Source: Minisyncoccota bacterium (GTDB lineage Bacteria > Patescibacteriota > Minisyncoccia > JAHIHE01 > JAGLIN01). From it: DNA of 64,000 nt. A program made the position numbers and the translations under genes. The stretch spans positions 63,980 through 127,979 of the forward strand of contig JBAZUT010000004.1 of assembly GCA_041661265.1 (NCBI GenBank). Reading direction: 5' to 3'. Below, in pieces: positions 4,723-48,442 of the stretch. The first letter of the stretch is position 1. Each line of letters opens with the position of its first letter. The notes under the pieces were generated by a model. The model searched no databases. It had not been told where the DNA came from and saw nothing but the letters and a program-made list of their open reading frames with translations.

Positions 4723-6660
4723 ATGCAGCTGTTGGATCGTTTGGCAAAAAGCGATATATTCAAGAAAACCGCCGGAAAAAGAACAATGTTTTTTTTGATT
4801 TGTGATATAATATTCATAACCTTATCTTTCTATCTGGCATTTATTCTGAGGTTTGACGGGCAGATACCTTCGCAGTATTTTTTTGGAAATATCCAGTCGT
4901 CAATTTTACTTGCGCTCGTTGCCTGCGTTCCGATCTTTTATCTCTCCAAGCTGTACCATTTTTCTTGGTCATATGTCAGTACGCAAGAATTGATCGCACT
5001 TTTGAGAGCGGTATCTCTCGGGTTTTTGGTCATTGGCGCATCGTTGTTTATTTTCAGGGATTATAGCGCGTTTAGCGGATTTCCCCGCTCGGTTCTCGTG
5101 ATCAGCTATTTTTTGGTTTTGTTTTCAACCGGGCTGATCCGTTTTTCGAAAAGAATTTATTTGAATATTGCGAGCGGCAAGGGTGAAGCCAAAAATGGAA
5201 AAAGGACGTTGATCGTGGGGGCCGGAGACGCGGGGGAGCAGATCCTGCGGAGCATTCAAACGGGAAAACAGAGAATGTATCTGCCGATAGGGTTCGTGGA
5301 TGACAACCAGATGAAACAGAAAGTTATAATCCATGGCTTGAAAGTCTTTGGTTTTATCGATAATATAACTGAAATCGCAAAGACTGAGAATATCGAGGAG
5401 ATGATCATTGCGCTTCCATCGGCCGGATCAAAGACCATCAAGAGAGCGGTGGAACTTGGGAGAAAGGCCGGAGTAGGGAATATAAAGATACTTCCGTCGA
5501 TGGCGGAGTTGATCGGTGGAAAAGTTTCGATCGGGAACATCAGGGAAGTTGAAGTGGAGGATCTTTTGGGCCGGGAGCCCGTGTCGGTTGATACTGAAAA
5601 GATCGAAAGATTCATAAAGGATAAAACTGTCCTGATCACAGGCGCGGCAGGTTCGATCGGAAGCGAGCTTTCAAGGCAAGTTGCAAAATTCAGACCCCGG
5701 AAGCTTCTTATTTTGGACCAAGATGAAACGGGCATGTTCTATATAGCGAATGAGCTAAAGGCGAATTTTTCCAATTTACAGATTGTTTCAGTTATTGCGG
5801 ACATCAGAGATCCGAATAAAATAAATGAAGTATTCAAGCAATTCAAGCCGAATATTGTTTTCCATGCGGCCGCCTATAAGCATGTTCCTCTCATGGAAGA
5901 GAATCCCGAAGAAGCGGTGAAGAATAATATTTTTGGCATGAAGACCGTTTCGGAAGCTTCTTTGAAACATGGCGCCGAGAAGTTTGTTCTTATATCGACT
6001 GACAAAGCGATCAATCCCACTTCGGTCATGGGTGCAACCAAGCGGGTTGGAGAAATGATATCGCAAGTTTTGAATCAAAAGGATCACACCAAGTTTGTTT
6101 CGGTGCGATTCGGGAATGTCTTGGGAAGCAGGGGGAGCGTCATTCCCACTTTCAAGGATCAGATAAAGCGGGGTGGACCTGTGAAAGTGACGCATCCGGA
6201 TATGAAAAGATATTTTATGATCACTTCCGAGGCATGTCTTTTGGTCATGCAGGCGGCGGAAATGGGCGGCGGCGGAGAGGTTTTTGTTCTGGATATGGGC
6301 GAGCAGATCAAGATCGTGGATCTTGCAAGGGAAATGATCAAGCTATCCGGCTTTAAGCCCGATGAGGATATGCCGATCGTTTTTACAGGTGTGAGGCCGG
6401 GAGAGAAATTATATGAAGAGATCCTGACTCCAAAAGAGGGTACTGTGGCGACAAAGAACAACAAGATATTCATTGCAAAGCTTGCTGCAACGGATGAACG
6501 AAAACTTAATGATGGGATGGGAAAATTGAAAAACATCATGTATAATTCAAATGGTGCTGAAATTAAGCGAGTTTTGAAGGAATTAGTGCCAAGCTATAGT
6601 GGAGTGTCGAATGTCGAAAGTGGAAAGTCCATAAAGTCAGAAAATAATTCTGGATATTAG
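4723..6660 (+). CDS. Polysaccharide biosynthesis protein CapD / PglF / WbpM-like membrane-anchored UDP-GlcNAc 4,6-dehydratase.
   Basis: 645 aa. Four N-terminal TM segments, Rossmann LITGAAGSIGSEL, YxxxK (AAYKHV) and downstream SDR-extended fold motifs. The 3' end of the CDS lies inside composite repeat copy A. Confidence 0.88.
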   Translation: MQLLDRLAKSDIFKKTAGKRTMFFLICDIIFITLSFYLAFILRFDGQIPSQYFFGNIQSSILLALVACVPIFYLSKLYHFSWSYVSTQELIALLRAVSLGFLVIGASLFIFRDYSAFSGFPRSVLVISYFLVLFSTGLIRFSKRIYLNIASGKGEAKNGKRTLIVGAGDAGEQILRSIQTGKQRMYLPIGFVDDNQMKQKVIIHGLKVFGFIDNITEIAKTENIEEMIIALPSAGSKTIKRAVELGRKAGVGNIKILPSMAELIGGKVSIGNIREVEVEDLLGREPVSVDTEKIERFIKDKTVLITGAAGSIGSELSRQVAKFRPRKLLILDQDETGMFYIANELKANFSNLQIVSVIADIRDPNKINEVFKQFKPNIVFHAAAYKHVPLMEENPEEAVKNNIFGMKTVSEASLKHGAEKFVLISTDKAINPTSVMGATKRVGEMISQVLNQKDHTKFVSVRFGNVLGSRGSVIPTFKDQIKRGGPVKVTHPDMKRYFMITSEACLLVMQAAEMGGGGEVFVLDMGEQIKIVDLAREMIKLSGFKPDEDMPIVFTGVRPGEKLYEEILTPKEGTVATKNNKIFIAKLAATDERKLNDGMGKLKNIMYNSNGAEIKRVLKELVPSYSGVSNVESGKSIKSENNSGY

Positions 6661-6837
6661 ATGCTAATTGCCCTATTGTTATATTGTCCCATTATTGAAT
6701 TGTTCTTTGCTTCAGTGGATCATGCTTTCTCAGAGTACTGACCTCCTTGGGGAGGTACAGAGCTCTCCGAGTTCTTTCGTACGTTGCCTCAGAGGATCCG
6801 ACCTCTTGGGGGAGATACGGACCTCTTAGCAAAGAGG
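6601..6837 (+). repeat. Composite repeat, copy A. A 5' (A)AAGTC/GAAAGT oligomer array is followed by an AT-rich ATTGTT segment and two GC-rich hairpin units of form CAGAG-N-GACCTC-N5-GAGGT-N-CAGAGCTCT.
   Basis: 6601-6766 aligns at about 80% identity with 8140-8286 (copy B); the same architecture recurs at about 11960-12080 and 13596-13750. The second hairpin unit is 6790-6837. The 5' part encodes the last ~20 aa and stop of the CapD-like gene. Confidence 0.7.
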
Positions 6838-6856
6838 GGAATGAATACTATTGCCG

Positions 6857-6884
6857 TTGACAGTATTATATATGGTTGTATAAT
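6857..6884 (+). promoter_or_regulatory. Sigma70-like promoter (TTGACA, 16-nt spacer, TATAAT) upstream of the AAA+ ATPase gene.
   Basis: ttgaca at 6857-6862 and tataat at 6879-6884, about 50 nt upstream of ATG 6936. Confidence 0.5.
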
Positions 6885-6935
6885 TAATATAACAAAAAGA
6901 CGCATAATTGTAATGCAATAATTACACATAGCAAA

Positions 6936-8138
6936 ATGGAGAGTAATTTCAAGAAAAGGCTTATATTAAGCCAAATAGAGAAGCATATTGATCACAAGAA
7001 TGCCATTGTGATCACCGGAATGCGACAAGTCGGCAAAACAACGCTTATGCGGTGTGTTTTTGATAAAATTATCGACAAACCCAAACTTTGGTTCGATTTT
7101 GATAATCCCCTGGATCAAAAAATATTTGAAGATATTGAATATCGGAATATTTATGAAAATCTGAAAAATCAATCGAAAGCAGGGGACGACGAGAGAATTT
7201 TTGTTTTTGTCGATGAAATTCAAAACTTTCCTGAGATCACAAAGGTGATGAAGTTTCTGATAGGTCAGTATGGCGTGAAGTTTTTTGTGACAGGGTCATC
7301 AAACTTTTATCTAAAAAACCTTTTCCCGGAGTCATTAAGCGGGCGAAAATTTCTTTACGAATTGTCCCCCCTGTCATTTCGAGAATATTTATATTTTAAG
7401 GAGAAAATCTCATTTGAGGATGCGGAAAATTGGAATATCGATAAGGCCATTAAATCTTCAAATTTGATCGATTTCAAAAAGCTGGAAGTGGATTACACGG
7501 AATTCATTACGTTTGGAGGGTTTCCTGAAGTTTGCCTCACGAAGGATCTGGCGACAAAGCGAGAAGTTCTAAAAAACATATTTGTGTCTTTTTTCGAAAA
7601 AGATCTGAAAATTATTTCAGACTATAGGGATATCCGTGAACTTCGGGACCTCATTCTTCTTCTTGTCCCGCGGGTCGGTTCAATGCTTGATGTGACGAAA
7701 ATTGCTTCCGAACTGGGCGTAAACAGAGTGAAGATATATGAATACCTCGCTTTTTTGCAAGGCACTTTCTTCATAAAACTTATCCCAAAATATTCAAAGA
7801 GCATCGATCGCACGGTGGCTGGAGGGAGGCGTGTGTATTTTTCTGATACGGGCATTCTTAATTCGATTGGAAGCGTGAATGAAGGGCAGCTTTTTGAGAA
7901 TGCAGTTATCAATCAGCTGGACAGATTCGGAGAAATCCATTTTTATAGGGGAAAAAGCGGGTCGGAAATAGATGCAATATTGGATAAAAAAATTGCTTTT
8001 GAAATTAAAACTAAAGGAACAAAGGAATATTTAAGGGATCTGGAAAAGAGATCCGAAGGAATTGGAATTTCAAACAGTTATTTGGTAAGCAGGGATTATG
8101 CGAATATTCCAAAAACGATCTTTGGGTCGATGCTTTAG
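6936..8138 (+). CDS. AAA+ ATPase of the AAA_14/DUF4143 type (P-loop NTPase with C-terminal DUF4143-like region).
   Basis: Walker A ITGMRQVGKTTL and Walker B VFVDEIQ. 400 aa, the typical length and architecture of the archaeal-ATPase-like DUF4143 family. Unrelated to the flanking glycan genes and bracketed by repeat copies A and B. Confidence 0.8.
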   Translation: MESNFKKRLILSQIEKHIDHKNAIVITGMRQVGKTTLMRCVFDKIIDKPKLWFDFDNPLDQKIFEDIEYRNIYENLKNQSKAGDDERIFVFVDEIQNFPEITKVMKFLIGQYGVKFFVTGSSNFYLKNLFPESLSGRKFLYELSPLSFREYLYFKEKISFEDAENWNIDKAIKSSNLIDFKKLEVDYTEFITFGGFPEVCLTKDLATKREVLKNIFVSFFEKDLKIISDYRDIRELRDLILLLVPRVGSMLDVTKIASELGVNRVKIYEYLAFLQGTFFIKLIPKYSKSIDRTVAGGRRVYFSDTGILNSIGSVNEGQLFENAVINQLDRFGEIHFYRGKSGSEIDAILDKKIAFEIKTKGTKEYLRDLEKRSEGIGISNSYLVSRDYANIPKTIFGSML

Positions 8139-8139
8139 C

Positions 8140-8312
8140 GGAGTGTCGAACGTCGGAAGTAGAAAGTAGAAAGTCTATAAAGTCGGAGAAAGATTCCGAA
8201 TATTAGATACTAATTGTTAGATTGTTCTATTGTTGAATTGTTCACTTTCTCAGAGCACTGACCTCGCGGTCGAGGTGCAGAGCTCTGTGAAAAGGGGTGC
8301 AGACCCCTTGCG
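8140..8312 (+). repeat. Composite repeat, copy B, starting 2 nt after the ATPase stop codon.
   Basis: Direct repeat of 6601-6766 (GTCGAA/AGTAGAAAGT oligomers, ATTGTTGAATTGTTC, CAGAGCACTGACCTCGCGGTCGAGGTGCAGAGCTCT), followed by a second hairpin AAGGGGTGCAGACCCCTT at 8291-8310. Confidence 0.7.
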
Positions 8313-8347
8313 CTAAAGGTTTATATTTACTAAAATAAAACAATCAT

Positions 8348-9274
8348 ATGGAGGAAATCGGGAGAAAAGAGGGTGAGGAGGTTTATTTAATCGATTATGT
8401 AAAAGTGATGGTAAAAAGAAAAAAAGTGATCACGACGGTGGTCTTGAGCGTTGTTGTTTTGGCGACAATCGTCAGTTTGGTCATGAATAGGGTATACAAG
8501 ATCGAATCCGTGATTGAGATCGGTACGGTATCGGTCGGTGCGCCGATAGAGAGCCCGGAACAGGTGTTGCAGGGGATCAAAAGGGATGTCTATGGCGCCA
8601 TGGTCAGGGAAAAGCTTGATATTTCCGAAACGGATTTCCCTAAGATAAAGACAGGGAATACTTCCGGGACGAATTTGATCTCAATGGAAATTAATTCCAA
8701 TAGGGCTGATCAGGCGAAGAGTGTTTTGGATGAGTTGAGCAATCTGATCATAGCCGGTCATCAGGAAAAGACAAAAGACGCAAAAGCACTTCTGGAAAGC
8801 GAGATTGAGTTAAGGAAGAAGGATATTGAAACTGTCGGTAAGGACGTTGAAAGAGTGAAAGCTAAGATCGTTTTTTTGGAGGAAGAAAGAAATAATCTGG
8901 ACGCGAAAGTTGCAGCTTTGCAGAAAGTGCTGGTTTATCGGCAGGATGCAGGAAGTCAGTTCGCCCTTTTTGATACAAAAGAAAAACTGGCATCAAAAAA
9001 ACAGGAAATAGAGAATACTTATATAGAAGTCAATTCCTCGGAGAACAATATAAATGCAATAAATGGGCAGATTAATATACTGGAAAAACAGATCTCTGAT
9101 ATCCGCATGACAAAAGTGGTGAAAGGTCCGGCTGTTTCTGAGAAAATTGTCAGTCCGGATATTGTTTCCAATCTGATTATTGCAGTGATATTCGGGTTAT
9201 TCCTGGGCATATTCCTGGCTTTTGTGATGGAGTGGTGGGAGAAGAACGGCAAAGAAATGAAAAGTGAAAAATGA
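8348..9274 (+). CDS. Wzz-like polysaccharide co-polymerase (chain-length determinant family).
   Basis: 308 aa. N-terminal TM after a charged leader, long coiled-coil central region, C-terminal TM (LIIAVIFGLFLGIFLAFV): PCP-1 topology. Confidence 0.65.
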   Translation: MEEIGRKEGEEVYLIDYVKVMVKRKKVITTVVLSVVVLATIVSLVMNRVYKIESVIEIGTVSVGAPIESPEQVLQGIKRDVYGAMVREKLDISETDFPKIKTGNTSGTNLISMEINSNRADQAKSVLDELSNLIIAGHQEKTKDAKALLESEIELRKKDIETVGKDVERVKAKIVFLEEERNNLDAKVAALQKVLVYRQDAGSQFALFDTKEKLASKKQEIENTYIEVNSSENNINAINGQINILEKQISDIRMTKVVKGPAVSEKIVSPDIVSNLIIAVIFGLFLGIFLAFVMEWWEKNGKEMKSEK

Positions 9275-9297
9275 AAAGTGAAAAATGAAAAGTGAAA
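9256..9297 (+). repeat. Three tandem copies of a 14-bp unit (AATGAAAAGTGAAA) spanning the Wzz stop codon.
   Basis: Perfect tandem copies at 9256-9269, 9270-9283 and 9284-9297. The last codons (EMKSEK) and the stop at 9272-9274 are encoded by the repeat. Confidence 0.85.
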
Positions 9298-9433
9298 AAG
9301 TAAATAGCACAAAGTGAATAGTAAATCGTAAATGGTAAATCGAGTTTATTGGTTGATTGTTGAGAGAAGTTAATAAAAATCAAGCGAAACTGAGCAAGTG
9401 GCATTTCCTAAAACCGAGTTTGGGCCAGATGCG

Positions 9434-9476
9434 CCTAAAGCTTAGTTTTAGGAAAATCCTAAAACTAAGCTTTAGG
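9434..9476. repeat. Perfect 19-bp inverted repeat with a 5-nt loop (CCTAAAGCTTAGTTTTAGG aaaat CCTAAAACTAAGCTTTAGG), copy 1.
   Basis: The identical palindrome (loop ataat) recurs at 48400-48442. It lies 10 nt upstream of the ATG of the O-antigen-ligase-family gene and about 160 nt downstream of wzz. Extra CCTAAAAC half-site at 9410-9417. Confidence 0.85.
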
Positions 9477-9486
9477 AAGCAGGTCT

Positions 9487-11901
9487 ATGAGTAAAAGAAA
9501 GAAAAATAGATATAGACAGGATGATATTGTTAACAATCCCAAAAGGGACTATACGAAATATTATCTCTTTATTATAAAGGCAGGGATCGTCGCTTGTCTT
9601 TTTTTGCCGTTGCTCGTTGTTCATTCCCATATGTTTGCAATGCAGGTAGGAAAGGTTCTAGTGTTCCGGACTATTATTGAAATAATAGCCTTTTTTTATA
9701 TTATTTTGATTATCAAAAAAGAGGAGTATCGTCCGAAATGGGGTTTGTTCGAGCTTTCAATCGCGGCATTTATAATGGTTTATCTATTGACTTCTTTAAC
9801 GGGTGTGAACTTTCTCAGGAGTTTTTGGGGAACAACTGAAAGAATGGGTGGGTTTTTCACAATGCTCCACTTCTGGGCATATTTTATGATCCTGATTAGC
9901 GTGTTTCGAACAAAAAAAGACTGGAAGATACTTTTTTCTGTTTCGATCTTTGTGGCGGTCATTTCGTCAATGTATGCGTTCGGGCAGAGCGCATTTTTTT
10001 GGAGAGATATTCTTCCATGGATAAAATCCGAAAATATCAATATATATACGGAAATAGCCAGATATGTTACGACTGATAATTTTGTCATCATCAATGACTG
10101 GAGAACTTTCGGTATGATCGGGAATGCAGGGCCCTTTGCGGGATATATTATGTTTAATGTCCTTCTGGGGTTGTATGTTATCAGTTCGGCAAGAAGCATT
10201 AAAAATAAATTCAGTGGCATTATCGCACTCTTGTTTCTATTTTCCGCTTTGTCTGGTGCAGGCACGAGAAGTGCATACATCGCAATTCTGGCGGGATTTG
10301 CCGTTTTATCGGTTATAAATGTCATTTTGTCCAAAAAAAAGAAGATGAGGATCGTTTCCGTCTTGTTCATTCTATTATTAATTATTGGAAGCGGAATTGT
10401 TTGGGCTAATAAGAAAGAGGATTGGGTCAAAAATAGTACTATACTTTCGAGGATGGTTAGTATATCTTTTGAAAATAATGAATCCAGGACTATGACGTGG
10501 GAATCATCCTGGAAAGGATTTGCCGATAGGCCCTTATTGGGAGCGGGGCCCGAGAATTATAATGTTGTTTTTAATAAGTATTTCAATCCTCTGCATTTCA
10601 CGGGATATGGTTCGACTTCTTGGTACGACAAGGCTCATAATATATTTCTTGATATTTTGACGACTATGGGAATTGTGGGACTGTTGAGCTATCTTGGCAT
10701 CTTTGCCATAATTTATTGGTTCTTGATCAAAAACAGGAGAAAAGCGCGGGAGAATCTGCCGGCATTTGCGCTGATCGCTTCGCTTCCCGTTGCTTATTTT
10801 GTCCAGAATATGTTCTGGTTCGATGACTTTTCAAGTTATCTGATGCTTTTCATGTTTTTCGCATTCGTGAGCAATTTTTTCAACCATGGACTTGGGTTTG
10901 AATATAGTGCCGAAAAGGGAAAGAAAGTTACGGATTTTATCCGGAGGAAATTATCTCTCAAGGCTTCTGCTGCGGGCGGCGATAGCGGGAATATCATTAT
11001 CGCGGTTGCGGGAATTGTTTTAATTTTTTCCACTTATTCTGCCAATTTCAAAGCTTGGAGATTCCATGATCTGACAACCGTTGCTGTCGGGGCAATCTCG
11101 CTTAATGCAGATGATTCATTTCTGTGGTACAAGGAAGCTATGAAAAATTCGACTTACCTTGGGAGGCAGGAGCTTTATAAGCGTTTTGGAAATTACGCCA
11201 ATGCGAAATATGTGCTTTCTGATCCGGGAGATCGGCGCAAGACGGAAGAATTCCAAGCCAATCTGAAGTTTGCCATATCCGAGATGGAAAATGCGGTAGC
11301 GGAAAACAAAGAAGACGTGCAATTCTATTCGCTTTTGGGTGCGCTCTATAACAAATATTACAGCAATTTCAGGGAGCCGGAATATATAGACAAAGCCGAA
11401 AAGACTTTGCAAAGGGCGGTTGAGCTCAGTCCTGAGCGCGAGACTGTGTATTATGAATATGGCCAGGCTATGGTTTTCAAAAAAGATTACAAGAAAGCAA
11501 TCGAGTTATTTAAGAAGGGGGTTGACCTGAACCCTCCTGTTCCCATCTCGCATTGGTATCTTGGAATGGCTTATCTTAATGCAAAGGAATATGGTTTGGC
11601 GGATTCTGAGATCAGTGAGGCGATCAAGCTGGGGTATGGATATAAAACGATCAAAGATTTGCTCAGTATCACTCCGATCTATATCGAACTCAAGGACTAT
11701 CAAAGACTTGAGAAGATATATCTGGATGTTTTGGAACTTGATCAAAATAATCCTGAAATCTATGTATCTCTGGCGTTGGTCTATAGAGAGCTTGGTGACA
11801 AAACCGGTGCGATCAAGATGGCGGAAAAGGCTATATCTTTGGACGAATCATTCAGGGTTGAAGGGGAGAAATTTATTGATGAATTGGAAGGTGGGAAGTA
11901 G
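9487..11901 (+). CDS. Wzy_C/O-antigen-ligase-family polytopic membrane protein with C-terminal TPR repeats; candidate O-oligosaccharyltransferase (PglL/PilO-type) or O-antigen polymerase/ligase.
   Basis: 804 aa. About 12 TM segments with a large loop carrying the ligase-family signature (GAGTRSAYIAILAG, AHNIFLDILTTMGIVG) and a soluble C-terminal ~300 aa of TPR-like repeats. Confidence 0.75.
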   Translation: MSKRKKNRYRQDDIVNNPKRDYTKYYLFIIKAGIVACLFLPLLVVHSHMFAMQVGKVLVFRTIIEIIAFFYIILIIKKEEYRPKWGLFELSIAAFIMVYLLTSLTGVNFLRSFWGTTERMGGFFTMLHFWAYFMILISVFRTKKDWKILFSVSIFVAVISSMYAFGQSAFFWRDILPWIKSENINIYTEIARYVTTDNFVIINDWRTFGMIGNAGPFAGYIMFNVLLGLYVISSARSIKNKFSGIIALLFLFSALSGAGTRSAYIAILAGFAVLSVINVILSKKKKMRIVSVLFILLLIIGSGIVWANKKEDWVKNSTILSRMVSISFENNESRTMTWESSWKGFADRPLLGAGPENYNVVFNKYFNPLHFTGYGSTSWYDKAHNIFLDILTTMGIVGLLSYLGIFAIIYWFLIKNRRKARENLPAFALIASLPVAYFVQNMFWFDDFSSYLMLFMFFAFVSNFFNHGLGFEYSAEKGKKVTDFIRRKLSLKASAAGGDSGNIIIAVAGIVLIFSTYSANFKAWRFHDLTTVAVGAISLNADDSFLWYKEAMKNSTYLGRQELYKRFGNYANAKYVLSDPGDRRKTEEFQANLKFAISEMENAVAENKEDVQFYSLLGALYNKYYSNFREPEYIDKAEKTLQRAVELSPERETVYYEYGQAMVFKKDYKKAIELFKKGVDLNPPVPISHWYLGMAYLNAKEYGLADSEISEAIKLGYGYKTIKDLLSITPIYIELKDYQRLEKIYLDVLELDQNNPEIYVSLALVYRELGDKTGAIKMAEKAISLDESFRVEGEKFIDELEGGK

Positions 11902-11959
11902 AGAGTGGGTGGCGGTTAGTAGATTGTAAAGGGGGAAATCAATATATCTCCAAGTTCTC

Positions 11960-12080
11960 TAGAGAGGGGAACAAATTGTATATTGTAAATCGTTCCATTG
12001 CTGAGTTGTTATTGGTCAGAGGATCCGACCTCGTTGGCGAGGTGCGGACCTCTTCGTAAGGGAGTGCAGACCTCTTTGCG
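11960..12080 (+). repeat. Composite repeat, copy C (ATTGT-rich segment plus GC hairpin units).
   Basis: AAATTGTATATTGTAAATCGTTCCATTGCTGAGTTGTTATTGG then CAGAGGATCCGACCTCGTTGGCGAGGTGCGGACCTCT (12017-12053) and a degenerate second unit containing GTGCAGACCTCTTTGCG. A weak GAAGTAGAGAGT match extends into the ligase 3' end from about 11895. Confidence 0.6.
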
Positions 12081-12086
12081 ATAATT

Positions 12087-12115
12087 TCCGCCTTTACGGC
12101 GGGTTTATTTTGTGC
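12087..12115 (+). terminator. Candidate intrinsic terminator (CCGCC-tttac-GGCGG followed by a T-rich run).
   Basis: 5-bp GC stem plus gtttatttt, downstream of the ligase-family gene and repeat copy C. Confidence 0.4.
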
Positions 12116-12154: not shown

Positions 12155-13132
12155 ATGATCGGAGGCTTCAAAAACACATTTGGTTTTCAAAATTGCAAGG
12201 AATATAACTTGGGACTTTGGCAGTGCCCAACTTTTTTATTTGTCGTAATGGGCATAGTCAACATGTGCGCAATGGTTGGAGTGTATATTCTTGTCAGCAA
12301 CAACTATAATTCTCCGGAAATCATGGTGGGAAGCGTGAGCGGAGTGAGCATGCTGATATTCATACTTGGATCGTCGGTGATTACCGGGGTGGAGCAGATA
12401 GCAAAGGCGAATTATGCCAAGTCGGAATTCGTTTCGATCGCTTCGCACCAGCTCAAGGCGCCTCTTTCCGGCATGAGGTGGGCGACTGACGTGCTCCTCA
12501 GCAAGAAAGTTGGAGAAATAACCGGGAAGCAGGAGGAATATCTGAAGGACATTCAGGAGAATACATCGAGGATGATCAGGCTGGTGAACGATCTTTTGGA
12601 TGTTTCCAGGATAGATTCAGGAAGAATGAATATGAAAACCGAGCAGGTAAGTCTATGTGAGATTATCGAGGGGGTCATAAGAGAACTGGGTTCATTCGCT
12701 CTCGCGAACAATGTCCAGATTATATTCAAGCCGATGTCAAAGGCTTGTCTGATCAATACGAATCCTGTCCGTATCAAGATGGTTATACAGAATTTTATCG
12801 ACAATGCCATAAAGTATACAGGGAACAAGAGGGGTGTTGTCGAGATCATATTGAGAAACGAAGGAAAACAGATCTATTGCGCAGTAAAGGATAATGGAAT
12901 AGGAATTCCGGCCGAGGAAAGAAAGCACATTTTCGACAAATTCTTCCGAGGAAGCGGAATTGCGAAGACACAGACCATCGGGACGGGTCTTGGGCTATAT
13001 ATCGCAAAAGCGGCCATAGAAAGTTCCGGAGGGAAGATTGGATTTGATACGAAAGACGGCAAAGGAACCACATTTTGGTTTACGTATCCGGTGTGCGCGA
13101 AATGCGAGGATATCAAAAATAGTATCAAGTAG
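12155..13132 (+). CDS. Membrane-bound sensor histidine kinase (HisKA plus HATPase_c) with a minimal sensor.
   Basis: H-box SIASHQLKAPLSGMRW, N-box NAIKYT, G-boxes DNGIGIP and GTGLGLYIA; two N-terminal TM segments. The real start may be the internal Met at 12236. Confidence 0.85.
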   Translation: MIGGFKNTFGFQNCKEYNLGLWQCPTFLFVVMGIVNMCAMVGVYILVSNNYNSPEIMVGSVSGVSMLIFILGSSVITGVEQIAKANYAKSEFVSIASHQLKAPLSGMRWATDVLLSKKVGEITGKQEEYLKDIQENTSRMIRLVNDLLDVSRIDSGRMNMKTEQVSLCEIIEGVIRELGSFALANNVQIIFKPMSKACLINTNPVRIKMVIQNFIDNAIKYTGNKRGVVEIILRNEGKQIYCAVKDNGIGIPAEERKHIFDKFFRGSGIAKTQTIGTGLGLYIAKAAIESSGGKIGFDTKDGKGTTFWFTYPVCAKCEDIKNSIK

Positions 13133-13149
13133 CTAGTAGTAAGTATCAT

Positions 13150-13205
13150 GCTTAATACTCTCTACTTAATGCTTAATACTCTCTACTTAATACTTAATAT
13201 TTAAT
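13150..13205 (+). repeat. About 2.6 tandem copies of a 21-bp unit (GCTTAATACTCTCTACTTAAT) between the kinase stop and the regulator start.
   Basis: Two perfect copies at 13150-13170 and 13171-13191 plus a partial ACTTAATATTTAAT. Confidence 0.8.
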
Positions 13206-13595: not shown

Positions 13596-13750
13596 TAGTC
13601 TATCAAGTCAAAAGTCCATAAAGTTAAAAGTCCGTAAAGTCTATAAAGTCAAAAGTCAATCAAGTCGAAATCACTCATTCTTCTTTTTTGAGCAATTCCA
13701 GGCATATCTGTCATTGCGAGCCCTGTACTCGGGGCGCGGCAATCTCTGTG
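13596..13750 (+). repeat. Composite repeat, diverged copy D: AAAGTC/TAAAGT heptamer array followed by a GC-rich hairpin ending CTCTGTG.
   Basis: CAAGTCAAAAGTCCATAAAGTTAAAAGTCCGTAAAGTCTATAAAGTCAAAAGTC... then TGTCATTGCGAGCCCTGTACTCGGGGCGCGGCAATCTCTGTG, comparable to the ...GACCTCGCGGTCGAGGTGCAGAGCTCTGTG end of copy B. Confidence 0.5.
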
Positions 13751-47639: not shown

Positions 47640-47735
47640 GCGAAAGTCAAAAGTTAATAGTCCAAAGTCAAAAGTCGTAAGTTTAAAACCAAAAGTCAAA
47701 AGCTTAAAGTCTAAATCAAAATCAAAATTATAGAA
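47640..47735 (+). repeat. (A)AAAGTC / AAAGTT heptamer-type oligomer array between the membrane-protein gene and pilB-2.
   Basis: gcgAAAGTCaAAAGTTaatAGTCcAAAGTCaAAAGTCgtAAGTTtaaaaccAAAAGTCaAAAGCTtAAAGTCtaaatcaaaatcaaaa; same unit as the 5' part of the composite repeat (copies A, B, D). Confidence 0.75.
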
Positions 47736-48344: not shown

Positions 48345-48399
48345 AGTGTTTTGTTTAGAATATTTTTGTGAAGAATTTGTTTTTGTTTTGCTCGGCGAG

Positions 48400-48442
48400 C
48401 CTAAAGCTTAGTTTTAGGATAATCCTAAAACTAAGCTTTAGG
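48400..48442. repeat. Perfect 19-bp inverted repeat with a 5-nt loop (CCTAAAGCTTAGTTTTAGG ataat CCTAAAACTAAGCTTTAGG), copy 2.
   Basis: Identical arms to 9434-9476. Lies between the major pilin gene (about 100 nt downstream of its stop) and the GTG start of 47739..48344 (56 nt upstream). Confidence 0.85.

Follow-up and report, generated by a model that had tools for sequence, protein, structure and literature searches.

The window analysed here, 64,000 nt of contig JBAZUT010000004.1, belongs to a metagenome-assembled genome (MAG) of Candidatus Paceibacterota, within the candidate phyla radiation (CPR), and contains a glycan locus in which a gene for an AAA_14 + DUF4143 ATPase lies between a CapD-like and a Wzz-like gene and is flanked by two long direct repeats, A and B. 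With a probability that we put at about 0.6, positions 6850-8132 are a mobile single-gene unit that was inserted with a long target duplication, A and B being the two copies of the target and not a mobile element in their own right. The repeats are best read as the product of the insertion and not as its agent. This mode of insertion is itself already known for restriction-modification (RM) genes; what the present analysis adds is a footprint seen across the gene family, precise boundaries for the unit, and a conserved promoter and putative operator for PDC-S01, the candidate family of the PADLOC database to which the ATPase gene belongs.

The CapD-Wzz junction is a variable accessory-gene slot in relatives. 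The initial annotation had suggested that the ATPase gene, being functionally unrelated to its neighbours, looks like a single-gene insertion or excision unit, to be checked against orthologous loci, and the comparison agrees with a single-gene accessory insertion unrelated to the glycan genes, both in the polymorphism of the junction and in the far greater similarity of the ATPase than of its flanks. In the four loci picked via graded CapD orthologues, Wzz follows directly after CapD in L006 and L007 (CapD identity 83% and 78%), and other cargo is found in L005 (87%), with an AbiEi/AbiEii pair, and in L008 (74%), with AbiEi/AbiEii and a 400-aa DUF4143 ATPase; the AbiEi/AbiEii assignments were confirmed by PADLOC. 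BLAST of the window against L008 returned a single block of 1283 nt (6850-8132) with 87.9% identity, against 72-73.5% in the flanks, and this block has one edge 7 nt 5′ of the ATPase promoter's -35 box and the other 6 nt short of where the open reading frame (ORF) ends. The ATPases of the two loci are 92% identical at the amino acid level and 88% at the nucleotide level, compared with 74% for CapD, 42% for Wzz and 69% for Wzy, and the Nei-Gojobori synonymous divergence (dS) of the ATPase, 0.66, contrasts with values of 1.96 (CapD) and 2.62 (Wzy) and with saturation in Wzz; even the T2SSE gene, whose product is 90% identical to that of L006, gives a dS of 2.3. The GC content of the ATPase gene is 37.6%, against 44.6±3.5% for the genes of the window. 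Given the dS values, the sharp 88% block, the low GC content and the junction polymorphism, the ATPase gene is a single-gene unit that has been exchanged horizontally and occupies a variable slot.

Further loci carry traces of the same unit. L005 holds a 121-nt remnant, 86.8% identical, that comprises the ATPase promoter, the 5′ untranslated region (5′UTR) and the start of the ORF, and it shares the left edge at 6850. Close relatives of the ATPase (76-87% identical) occupy other contexts, and two independent pairs of units that are 89-91% identical, each set in flanks that are unrelated, agree with these boundaries: the shared stretch runs from -74 to the stop codon in L023/L081 and from -209 to +19 in L031/L093. 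Transposition was also suspected for a group of 99%-identical ATPases (L035, L039, L099-L105) and was rejected after BLAST showed the same context. Within a set of contigs that are 97-99% identical, some have an additional 1.9-kb segment that encodes a 442-aa ORF and abuts the unit (L099:2021-3937 versus L039:5185-5194); it is inserted 64 nt 5′ of the ATPase start codon, at the left boundary of the unit, without target duplication, and this boundary is thus variable in its own right. Another, diverged DUF4143 ATPase gene stands in tandem or nearby in L140 (361-1656 and 2362-3564), L142 (2112-3365 and 6001-7203) and L145 (6001-7203 and 7358-8497). Close relatives of the ATPase often sit beside Schlafen/AlbA_2-HATPase_c_4 or Pol-beta nucleotidyltransferase (NTase) genes, repeatedly within glycosyltransferase-rich loci, which suggests that CPR genomes accommodate such cargo preferentially in their glycan operons.

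Flanking repeats accompany the gene well beyond the source lineage. Genome and metagenome scans gave a family set of 128 loci, whose ATPases are 45-82% identical, together with one source-strain copy, from many CPR phyla, Bacteroidota, Ignavibacteriota and Chlorobiota. When the 450 nt upstream of each gene were compared with the 450 nt downstream, and the maximum of cross-locus controls was used as threshold, 20 of the 70 non-redundant loci exceeded it. With equal flanks, 18 of 67 DUF4143 ATPase genes were repeat-flanked (27%), compared with 8 of 205 non-adjacent control genes (3.9%; odds ratio 9.0, p=5e-7), and the same was true of only 3 of 76 length-matched controls (p=1e-4 versus the ATPase genes). 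The repeats are 24-174 nt long and 72-98% identical, and no terminal inverted repeats were seen at the 20 junction pairs. The initial annotation had asked whether DUF4143 ATPases of the lineage are typically bounded by this repeat; other genomes have entirely different, locus-specific repeats, often a copy of the 3′ end of a neighbouring gene (8 of 20 loci have a neighbour ORF 3′ end within the repeat). In L044, 29 terminal codons of the upstream gene, together with its stop, reappear in frame from the ATPase stop codon onward, the last 23 codons and stop are duplicated in L036, and the target gene of L043 lies on the opposite strand, with its remnant upstream of the ATPase; in L145, which encodes a 76% relative of the window protein, the flanking repeat is 120 nt long. 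Counts of synonymous and non-synonymous changes between the two repeat copies in L036 and L044, considered as a test between a foreign copy and duplication in situ, were dropped because they fit both models. The inner edges of the repeats fall at similar places: in four loci the upstream copy reaches to within 53-54 nt of the ATG, and the downstream copy starts within -9 to +30 nt of the stop codon in ten. The last bases of the ORF and its stop codon lie inside the repeat in the window, L025 and L031, and these ORF ends suggest that the junctions may have formed at microhomology. L031 presents a small array of repeat-bounded single-gene units adjoining its ATPase gene, in which a segment made up of the terminal 13 nt of that gene's ORF and its 3′ flank recurs with 89-99% identity behind each of two tandem BRO-N-domain genes downstream (7179-7253, 8252-8326 and 9367-9441).

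In the window, A and B (Table 1) align with a local score of 103, compared with 18.9±2.4 (maximum 28) in shuffled sequence, so that the direct repeats noticed in the initial annotation, with copy A covering the 3′ end of the CapD gene, are real. They are 174 and 155 nt long and 72-77% identical over the full alignment, which has three indels, and 84% identical over the first ~110 nt. Copy A contains GAAAGTNN words, GATATTAGATRCTAATTG, ATTGTT words and stem-loop A1 (6725-6766), and copy B contains the last two codons of the ATPase gene with its TAG stop and stem-loop B1 (8245-8286). The long collinear stretch GGAGTGTCGAA..GAAAGT..ATAAAGTC..GATTCYGRATATTAGATRCTAATTG is found nowhere else in the window; within these 64 kb, the first ~110 nt of the repeat are confined to A and B, and a 21-mer of the hairpin part occurs in these two places only, with 0 expected. 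Neighbouring junctions do have further examples of the ATTGTT words and of this type of hairpin. The final 7 nt of the ATPase ORF already belong to copy B, which begins exactly where the block of homology to L008 ends. The initial annotation had the gene exactly bracketed by A and B, and this is correct on the right, where B overlaps the ORF end, and not on the left, where 83 nt intervene. Its further idea of a movement mediated by recombination between element copies, or of a gene carried by them, finds no backing, since A and B share at most 11 nt of exact identity, the annotated genes from ~7 kb upstream to 10 kb downstream include no recombinase, all contigs of the same strain keep the gene, and the repeats around this gene in other genomes have sequences of their own. 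L005 has an orthologue of copy A after its CapD gene, and this copy, window A and window B are mutually 84-89% alike; the A/B duplication is therefore about as old as the split of the window and L005 lineages, which fits the ATPase remnant in L005.

Table 1. Coordinates of the ATPase unit, its flanking repeats and the adjoining genes (window positions).
Feature	Position	Strand	Basis or remark
CapD/FlaA1-like NDP-sugar epimerase/dehydratase gene, target side	4723..6660	+	Pfam Polysacc_synt_2, 2e-116
Direct repeat copy A core, upstream copy	6593..6766	+	local alignment to B
Repetitive extragenic palindromic (REP)-like 15-bp stem-loop A2	6789..6832	+	dispersed intergenic hairpin family, outside the A/B duplication
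Horizontally mobile unit: promoter, operator-like palindrome and ATPase ORF minus last 2 codons	6850..8132	+	BLAST block versus L008
Consensus sigma-70 promoter TTGACA-N16-TATAAT	6857..6884	+	12/12 match; best site in 4.5-14 kb
5′UTR palindrome TGTAAT-N6-ATTACA (TGTAAT 6909-6914, ATTACA 6921-6926)	6909..6926	+	sequence
AAA_14 + DUF4143 ATPase-nuclease gene, 400 aa, PADLOC candidate family PDC-S01	6936..8138	+	Pfam and PADLOC
Direct repeat copy B core, downstream non-coding copy	8132..8286	+	local alignment to A
Wzz-like chain-length determinant gene, far side of junction	8348..9274	+	orthologues with Pfam Wzz; weak EpsF match
Wzy_C/TPR gene	9487-11901		downstream of Wzz-like gene
Partial third repeat copy C, after the Wzy/TPR gene	~11900-12080	+	score 72 versus B; next-best place for B in 64 kb

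Considering these observations together, the unit would have landed in intergenic DNA between the CapD-like and Wzz-like genes, and its insertion would have duplicated ~170 bp (possibly up to ~240 bp), comprising the CapD tail and a native intergenic stem-loop, so that A and B would be the two target copies, by now 16-28% diverged. The duplication probably arose at insertion itself, either by staggered or double-strand breakage and fill-in or by joining of a circular intermediate at microhomology. It is possible that recombination between the copies, while these were fresh and identical, excised or spread the unit at an early stage.

Insertion of RM genes with long target duplication was reportedly described by Nobusato et al. 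in 2000. Genes of RM types I-IV, including a lone mcrA, were found inserted in this way by Furuta, Abe and Kobayashi (2010; PMC2853133), mostly in naturally competent species, with repeats that overlap gene 3′ ends and are enriched relative to average genes; the mechanism was left unexplained in that study, and double-strand breakage was suspected. The present case shares with these a nuclease-type defence unit without transposase or integrase, repeats that exceed 30 bp, vary in length, are specific to the locus and often overlap the 3′ end of an adjacent gene, enrichment over average genes, and single-gene cases such as mcrA. The RM hosts are mostly proficient in DNA uptake, and the CPR locus adjoins type IV pilus genes. 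Seen by the criteria of the 2010 study, the window has an insert of ~1.37 kb (<20 kb) with one ORF, no mobile-element genes in the annotated neighbourhood and a repeat of >30 bp; L006 and L007 have empty sites in which the intergenic DNA cannot be aligned, and L005 has the copy A orthologue with different cargo. Unlike the RM insertions, the cargo is one protein in which an ORC/STAND-like AAA+ ATPase is joined to a PD-(D/E)xK domain, the hosts include CPR/Patescibacteria, and the unit has sharp ends, the left one ~7-15 nt 5′ of its -35 box and the right one at the stop codon, as well as a palindrome that is conserved as a putative operator.

Other mobile systems share some of these traits. As in insertion sequences (IS) and miniature inverted-repeat transposable elements (MITEs), the unit is compact, its ORF ends at one edge and its promoter lies at the other, and the target is directly duplicated; a hybrid -35 box occurs in L060 (2166-2205), where TTGACA apparently spans the junction, the duplicated target contributing TT and the unit GACA, as in the hybrid promoters of some IS. 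In contrast to them, it has no terminal inverted repeats and no DDE, HUH, serine or tyrosine transposase, the duplications measure 24-174 nt and not a fixed 2-14 bp, and there is no evidence of multiple identical copies per genome. With defence islands and hotspots it shares a junction between conserved genes and alternative cargo (none, AbiE, AbiE + ATPase, ATPase), whereas its scale of 0-4 kb and its position inside a glycan operon of a reduced CPR genome, without prophage, satellite or integrase, set it apart from them.

Several observations weigh against an insertion with target duplication, or against a part of it. Between copy A and the start of the unit lie 83 nt (6767-6849) with a separate REP-like hairpin. 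The intergenic DNA of the empty-site relatives L006 and L007 was too diverged to align, so that no alignable empty allele was found, and an empty allele sought for L044 gave a best target-gene homologue of only 45% identity. About 73% of the family members have no flanking repeat, and these may be old or may have been inserted by another route. AbiE and BRO-N accessory genes, which are not ATPases, are repeat-flanked as well, and hence the insertion mode may belong to DNA uptake or repair of the hosts and not to the ATPase. As regards the putative role in defence, in the one test found a representative of PDC-S01 was not among the four candidate systems reported to be protective against T4, T5 and T7 in Escherichia coli. 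Furthermore, an ATTGTT module recurs on the + strand at four successive junctions of the window (CapD|ATPase, ATPase|Wzz, Wzz|Wzy and Wzy|histidine kinase), and since this intergenic vocabulary and copy C recur at other junctions, part of the similarity of A and B may come from a shared local element family.

This last observation leads to the alternative that A, B and C are locus-specific intergenic modules (word repeats, ATTGTT module and stem-loop) at transcript ends or in leaders, placed after each gene of the glycan operon to serve regulation or termination, with the ATPase gene merely standing between two of them. The ATTGTT module is also found at equivalent or cassette junctions of L005, L008 and L139 and is almost absent elsewhere in the 64 kb; copy C, which consists of an ATTGTT-like module and a REP-like hairpin and has an intrinsic terminator (12087-12103) behind it, is the next-best place for B; and stem-loops A1, B1 and C1 have 15-bp stems with compensatory differences (z = -2.2 to -4.2), one hairpin type being dispersed. 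Nevertheless, the long collinear stretch of A and B is unique in the window, the start of B coincides with the edge of the transferred unit, and unrelated, partly coding repeats around the same gene in other phyla could not be explained in this manner, so we consider this alternative unlikely. It is more doubtful still that the unit is an excisable cassette in which repeat-by-repeat recombination yields a circle (one repeat plus the gene) that re-integrates, Campbell-fashion, at the homologous site of relatives. Such a life cycle was proposed by Kobayashi's group for repeat-flanked RM units (PMC2853133), and it would agree with the flanking repeats, with copy B abutting the unit end as a circle junction would, with L044 and L123, which share the unit and both repeats at 93% and are more diverged or unrelated outside, and with the unit of the window and L008 at the same junction, with ATTGTT-containing repeats on both sides in both. 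The present-day copies, however, share no more than 11 nt of exact sequence and differ by three indels, and the first arrival at new targets with different repeats would be left unexplained. Nor was an empty or circular form seen among four public contigs with an identical ATPase and three with an identical Wzz, all of which keep the gene; these contigs are uninformative on excision because they represent one strain (at least 99.8% identity), all carrying the gene.

The remaining two alternatives are both very unlikely. A site-specific cassette system, integron-like or integrase-mediated, with the ATTGTT/hairpin modules as att sites and a recombinase encoded elsewhere, would account for serial one- or two-gene cargo (AbiEi/AbiEii, ATPase) at one junction, for similar bounding modules in L005 and L008 and for hairpin-forming repeats 3′ of ORFs; indeed, the locus resembles integron cassettes in its small, promoter-proximal cargo set in series at one site, in the imperfect hairpin repeat after each and in cargo of toxin-antitoxin type. 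It differs from them in that there is no IntI and no attI or attC core site, the cargo has its own promoters, unlike that of typical integron cassettes, and the target-derived repeats vary by site, being elsewhere in the family unrelated target sequences of variable length; neither the annotated genes from ~7 kb upstream to 10 kb downstream of the ATPase nor the related loci L005-L008 include an integrase or recombinase. A similarly small chance is given to the ATPase gene being an ancestral resident that descended vertically and was lost in L006 and L007, the repeats being incidental. Among the relatives examined, both the most distant one (L008) and the nearest (L005, as a remnant) do have the gene at this junction, but a dS of 0.66 beside saturated flanks, an 88% block with sharp edges confined to the unit, the low GC content and close homologues in other contexts are difficult to reconcile with vertical descent. 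On balance, insertion of a single-gene unit with long target duplication remains the reading that we prefer.

The encoded protein was identified as an AAA+ ATPase of DUF4143 type in the initial annotation, and the Pfam check proposed there returned AAA_14 (1.2e-28) and DUF4143 (7e-23), both over the gathering cut-offs. PADLOC model PDLC04789 (PDC-S01) matched nearly the full length (residues 7-362, 2.8e-58), whereas NCBIfam gave no named family and a sequence search of the PDB gave no homologue. In an alignment of 30 homologues, the Walker A motif G28-T35 (GxxxxGKT), the Walker B residues D93/E94 and the residues E321, E344, E356 and K358 are invariant and D346 is at least 90% conserved, so that the C-terminal part bears a PD-(D/E)xK signature, D346...E356-x-K358, whose predicted secondary structure (helix 316-328, strands 334-338, 344-349 and 353-358, helix 363-375, strand 380-385) is that of the PD-(D/E)xK core; DUF4143 is family 100 in the list of the PD-(D/E)XK superfamily (Steczkiewicz 2012; PMC3424549). 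In the AlphaFold model (pLDDT 89), the N-terminal two-thirds resemble Orc1/Cdc6, clamp-loader and STAND/NLR/Avs ATPases by Foldseek, with AAA+, helical and winged-helix domains. From these features, the protein would be a nuclease that depends on NTP and serves either defence or its own selfish maintenance.

The near-consensus promoter that the initial annotation had assigned to the gene turned out to match the consensus fully (Table 1), and it is kept in L008 and in the L005 remnant. A palindrome related to that of the 5′UTR occurs within 100 nt upstream of the gene in 58 of 78 family members and of only 6 of 401 control genes, the typical form of the family being TGTAAT-N6-ATTACA...TGTAAT. 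It is a putative operator to which the winged helix may bind for autoregulation, an RNA hairpin being the alternative.

PDC-S01 is a candidate anti-phage family by guilt-by-embedding, and it has been described as the fourth commonest defence-type gene of prokaryotes, with an ATPase and a PD-(D/E)XK domain and many inter-domain transfers (PMC12988326). The window gene has the same domain architecture as PDC-S01 (COG1373), and its relatives sit among AbiE, Schlafen/AlbA_2 and Pol-beta NTase genes. In the literature on DUF4143, COG1373 and PDC-S01 we found descriptions of the gene family only, and none of a mobile unit, a promoter or operator, or a flanking duplication. A much bolder proposal, to which we give a low probability, is that PDC-S01 (AAA_14-DUF4143) genes are autonomous selfish elements, the protein of which would recognise its own palindrome-bearing unit and promote its own insertion by widely staggered or double-strand cleavage of the target, usually just past the 3′ end of a gene and with a duplication of 25-175 bp.

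The genes around the junction show traces of the repeats and of exchange. The last ~20 codons of the CapD gene (6601-6660) are read out of repeat copy A and give the word-repeat tail SGVSNVESGKSIKSENNSGY, followed by the stop. Most CapD orthologues are ~20 aa shorter, with those of L006-L008 (three of the four compared) stopping 3-5 codons past the conserved VP(S/T)Y, and L005 CapD (640 aa) has the same C-terminal tail as window CapD. The tail is thus repeat-derived and non-conserved, since it comes from the word repeat and is absent in L006-L008. An exact look-up of the window CapD protein gave no match. Downstream of the Wzy_C/TPR gene follow genes for a histidine kinase, a receiver protein and type IV pilus components. 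The window Wzz is 68% identical to that of L007 and only 39% identical to that of L005, and yet the 3′ end of wzz (window 9218-9337 versus L005:13358-13477, the last ~57 nt of the gene and 60 nt of intergenic DNA) is 96.7% identical to L005; given this disparity, a sharp recombination breakpoint can be placed there, at which the wzz allele was swapped. In every comparison, no genes of the block have diverged further than Wzz and Wzy, and copies B and C bracket wzz-wzy.

The intergenic DNA of the lineage has a repetitive vocabulary of its own. Degenerate tandem words with a period of 7-8 (14 at 9255-9310), such as GAAAGTNN/AAAGTCNA, AGTAAAT/CGTAAAT, GGATATT, ATTGTTN, AATGAAAAGTGAAA and TACTTAAT, make up many intergenic regions, among them those at 9255-9310, 11880-11940, 13120-13200, 13597-13670 and 47647-47720 of the window and intergenic regions of L005, L008, L138 and L139. 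The tracts mostly begin at the stop codon of a gene, and a TAA or TAG in the word reaches all three frames because the period is 7 or 8. Contigs of relatives frequently terminate inside such tracts: the CapD-orthologue contigs L138 and L139 end in low-complexity word repeats ~200 nt past CapD, thus breaking within or just after CapD, and all independent assemblies of the source strain (L001-L004) start at window positions ~5581-6527. The breaks near CapD are probably due to the low-complexity words or to strain heterogeneity at the junction.

Hairpins are likewise dispersed. The A2 hairpin (39-44 nt) recurs at 12016-12059 and at L005:3351-3389 with 84-95% identity. The REP-like stem-loop family has the form CAGAG-N5/6-GACCTC-loop-GAGGT-N-GA(G/C)CTCT, of which A1 and B1 are variants, and shows compensatory pairs (ACCTCC/GGAGGT versus ACCTCG/CGAGGT); its members always lie on the gene strand, 3′ of an ORF, and have no Rfam match. 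An Rfam scan of the whole window at gathering thresholds returned one tRNA only and assigned repeats and hairpins to no known RNA family. What looks like a second dispersed family of intergenic repeats is a 44-nt perfect palindromic element, GCCTAAAGCTTAGTTTTAGGAnAATCCTAAAACTAAGCTTTAGG, present at 9433-9476 and 48399-48442 (98% identical) and also at L005:11106-11150 and L007:14611-14646, with shorter CCTAAAACCGAGTTTTAGG copies in L005, L008 and L139.

For the organism, these results show that a cell-surface glycan operon serves as a slot in which AbiE, DUF4143 and Schlafen-like cargo is swapped in highly reduced CPR genomes. For the family, they show that the gene travels as a discrete ~1.3-kb module of promoter, operator and ORF, across phylum boundaries, and that the embedding of PDC-S01 in defence islands may partly reflect its own mobility. 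The ~80 non-redundant related loci offer a large and simple single-protein system for studying insertion with long target duplication. Should the bolder proposal of autonomous selfish elements be true, an abundant defence candidate would represent a new class of single-gene mobile element without canonical transposase or integrase, and it would provide a tractable model for the long-target-duplication insertions of restriction genes.

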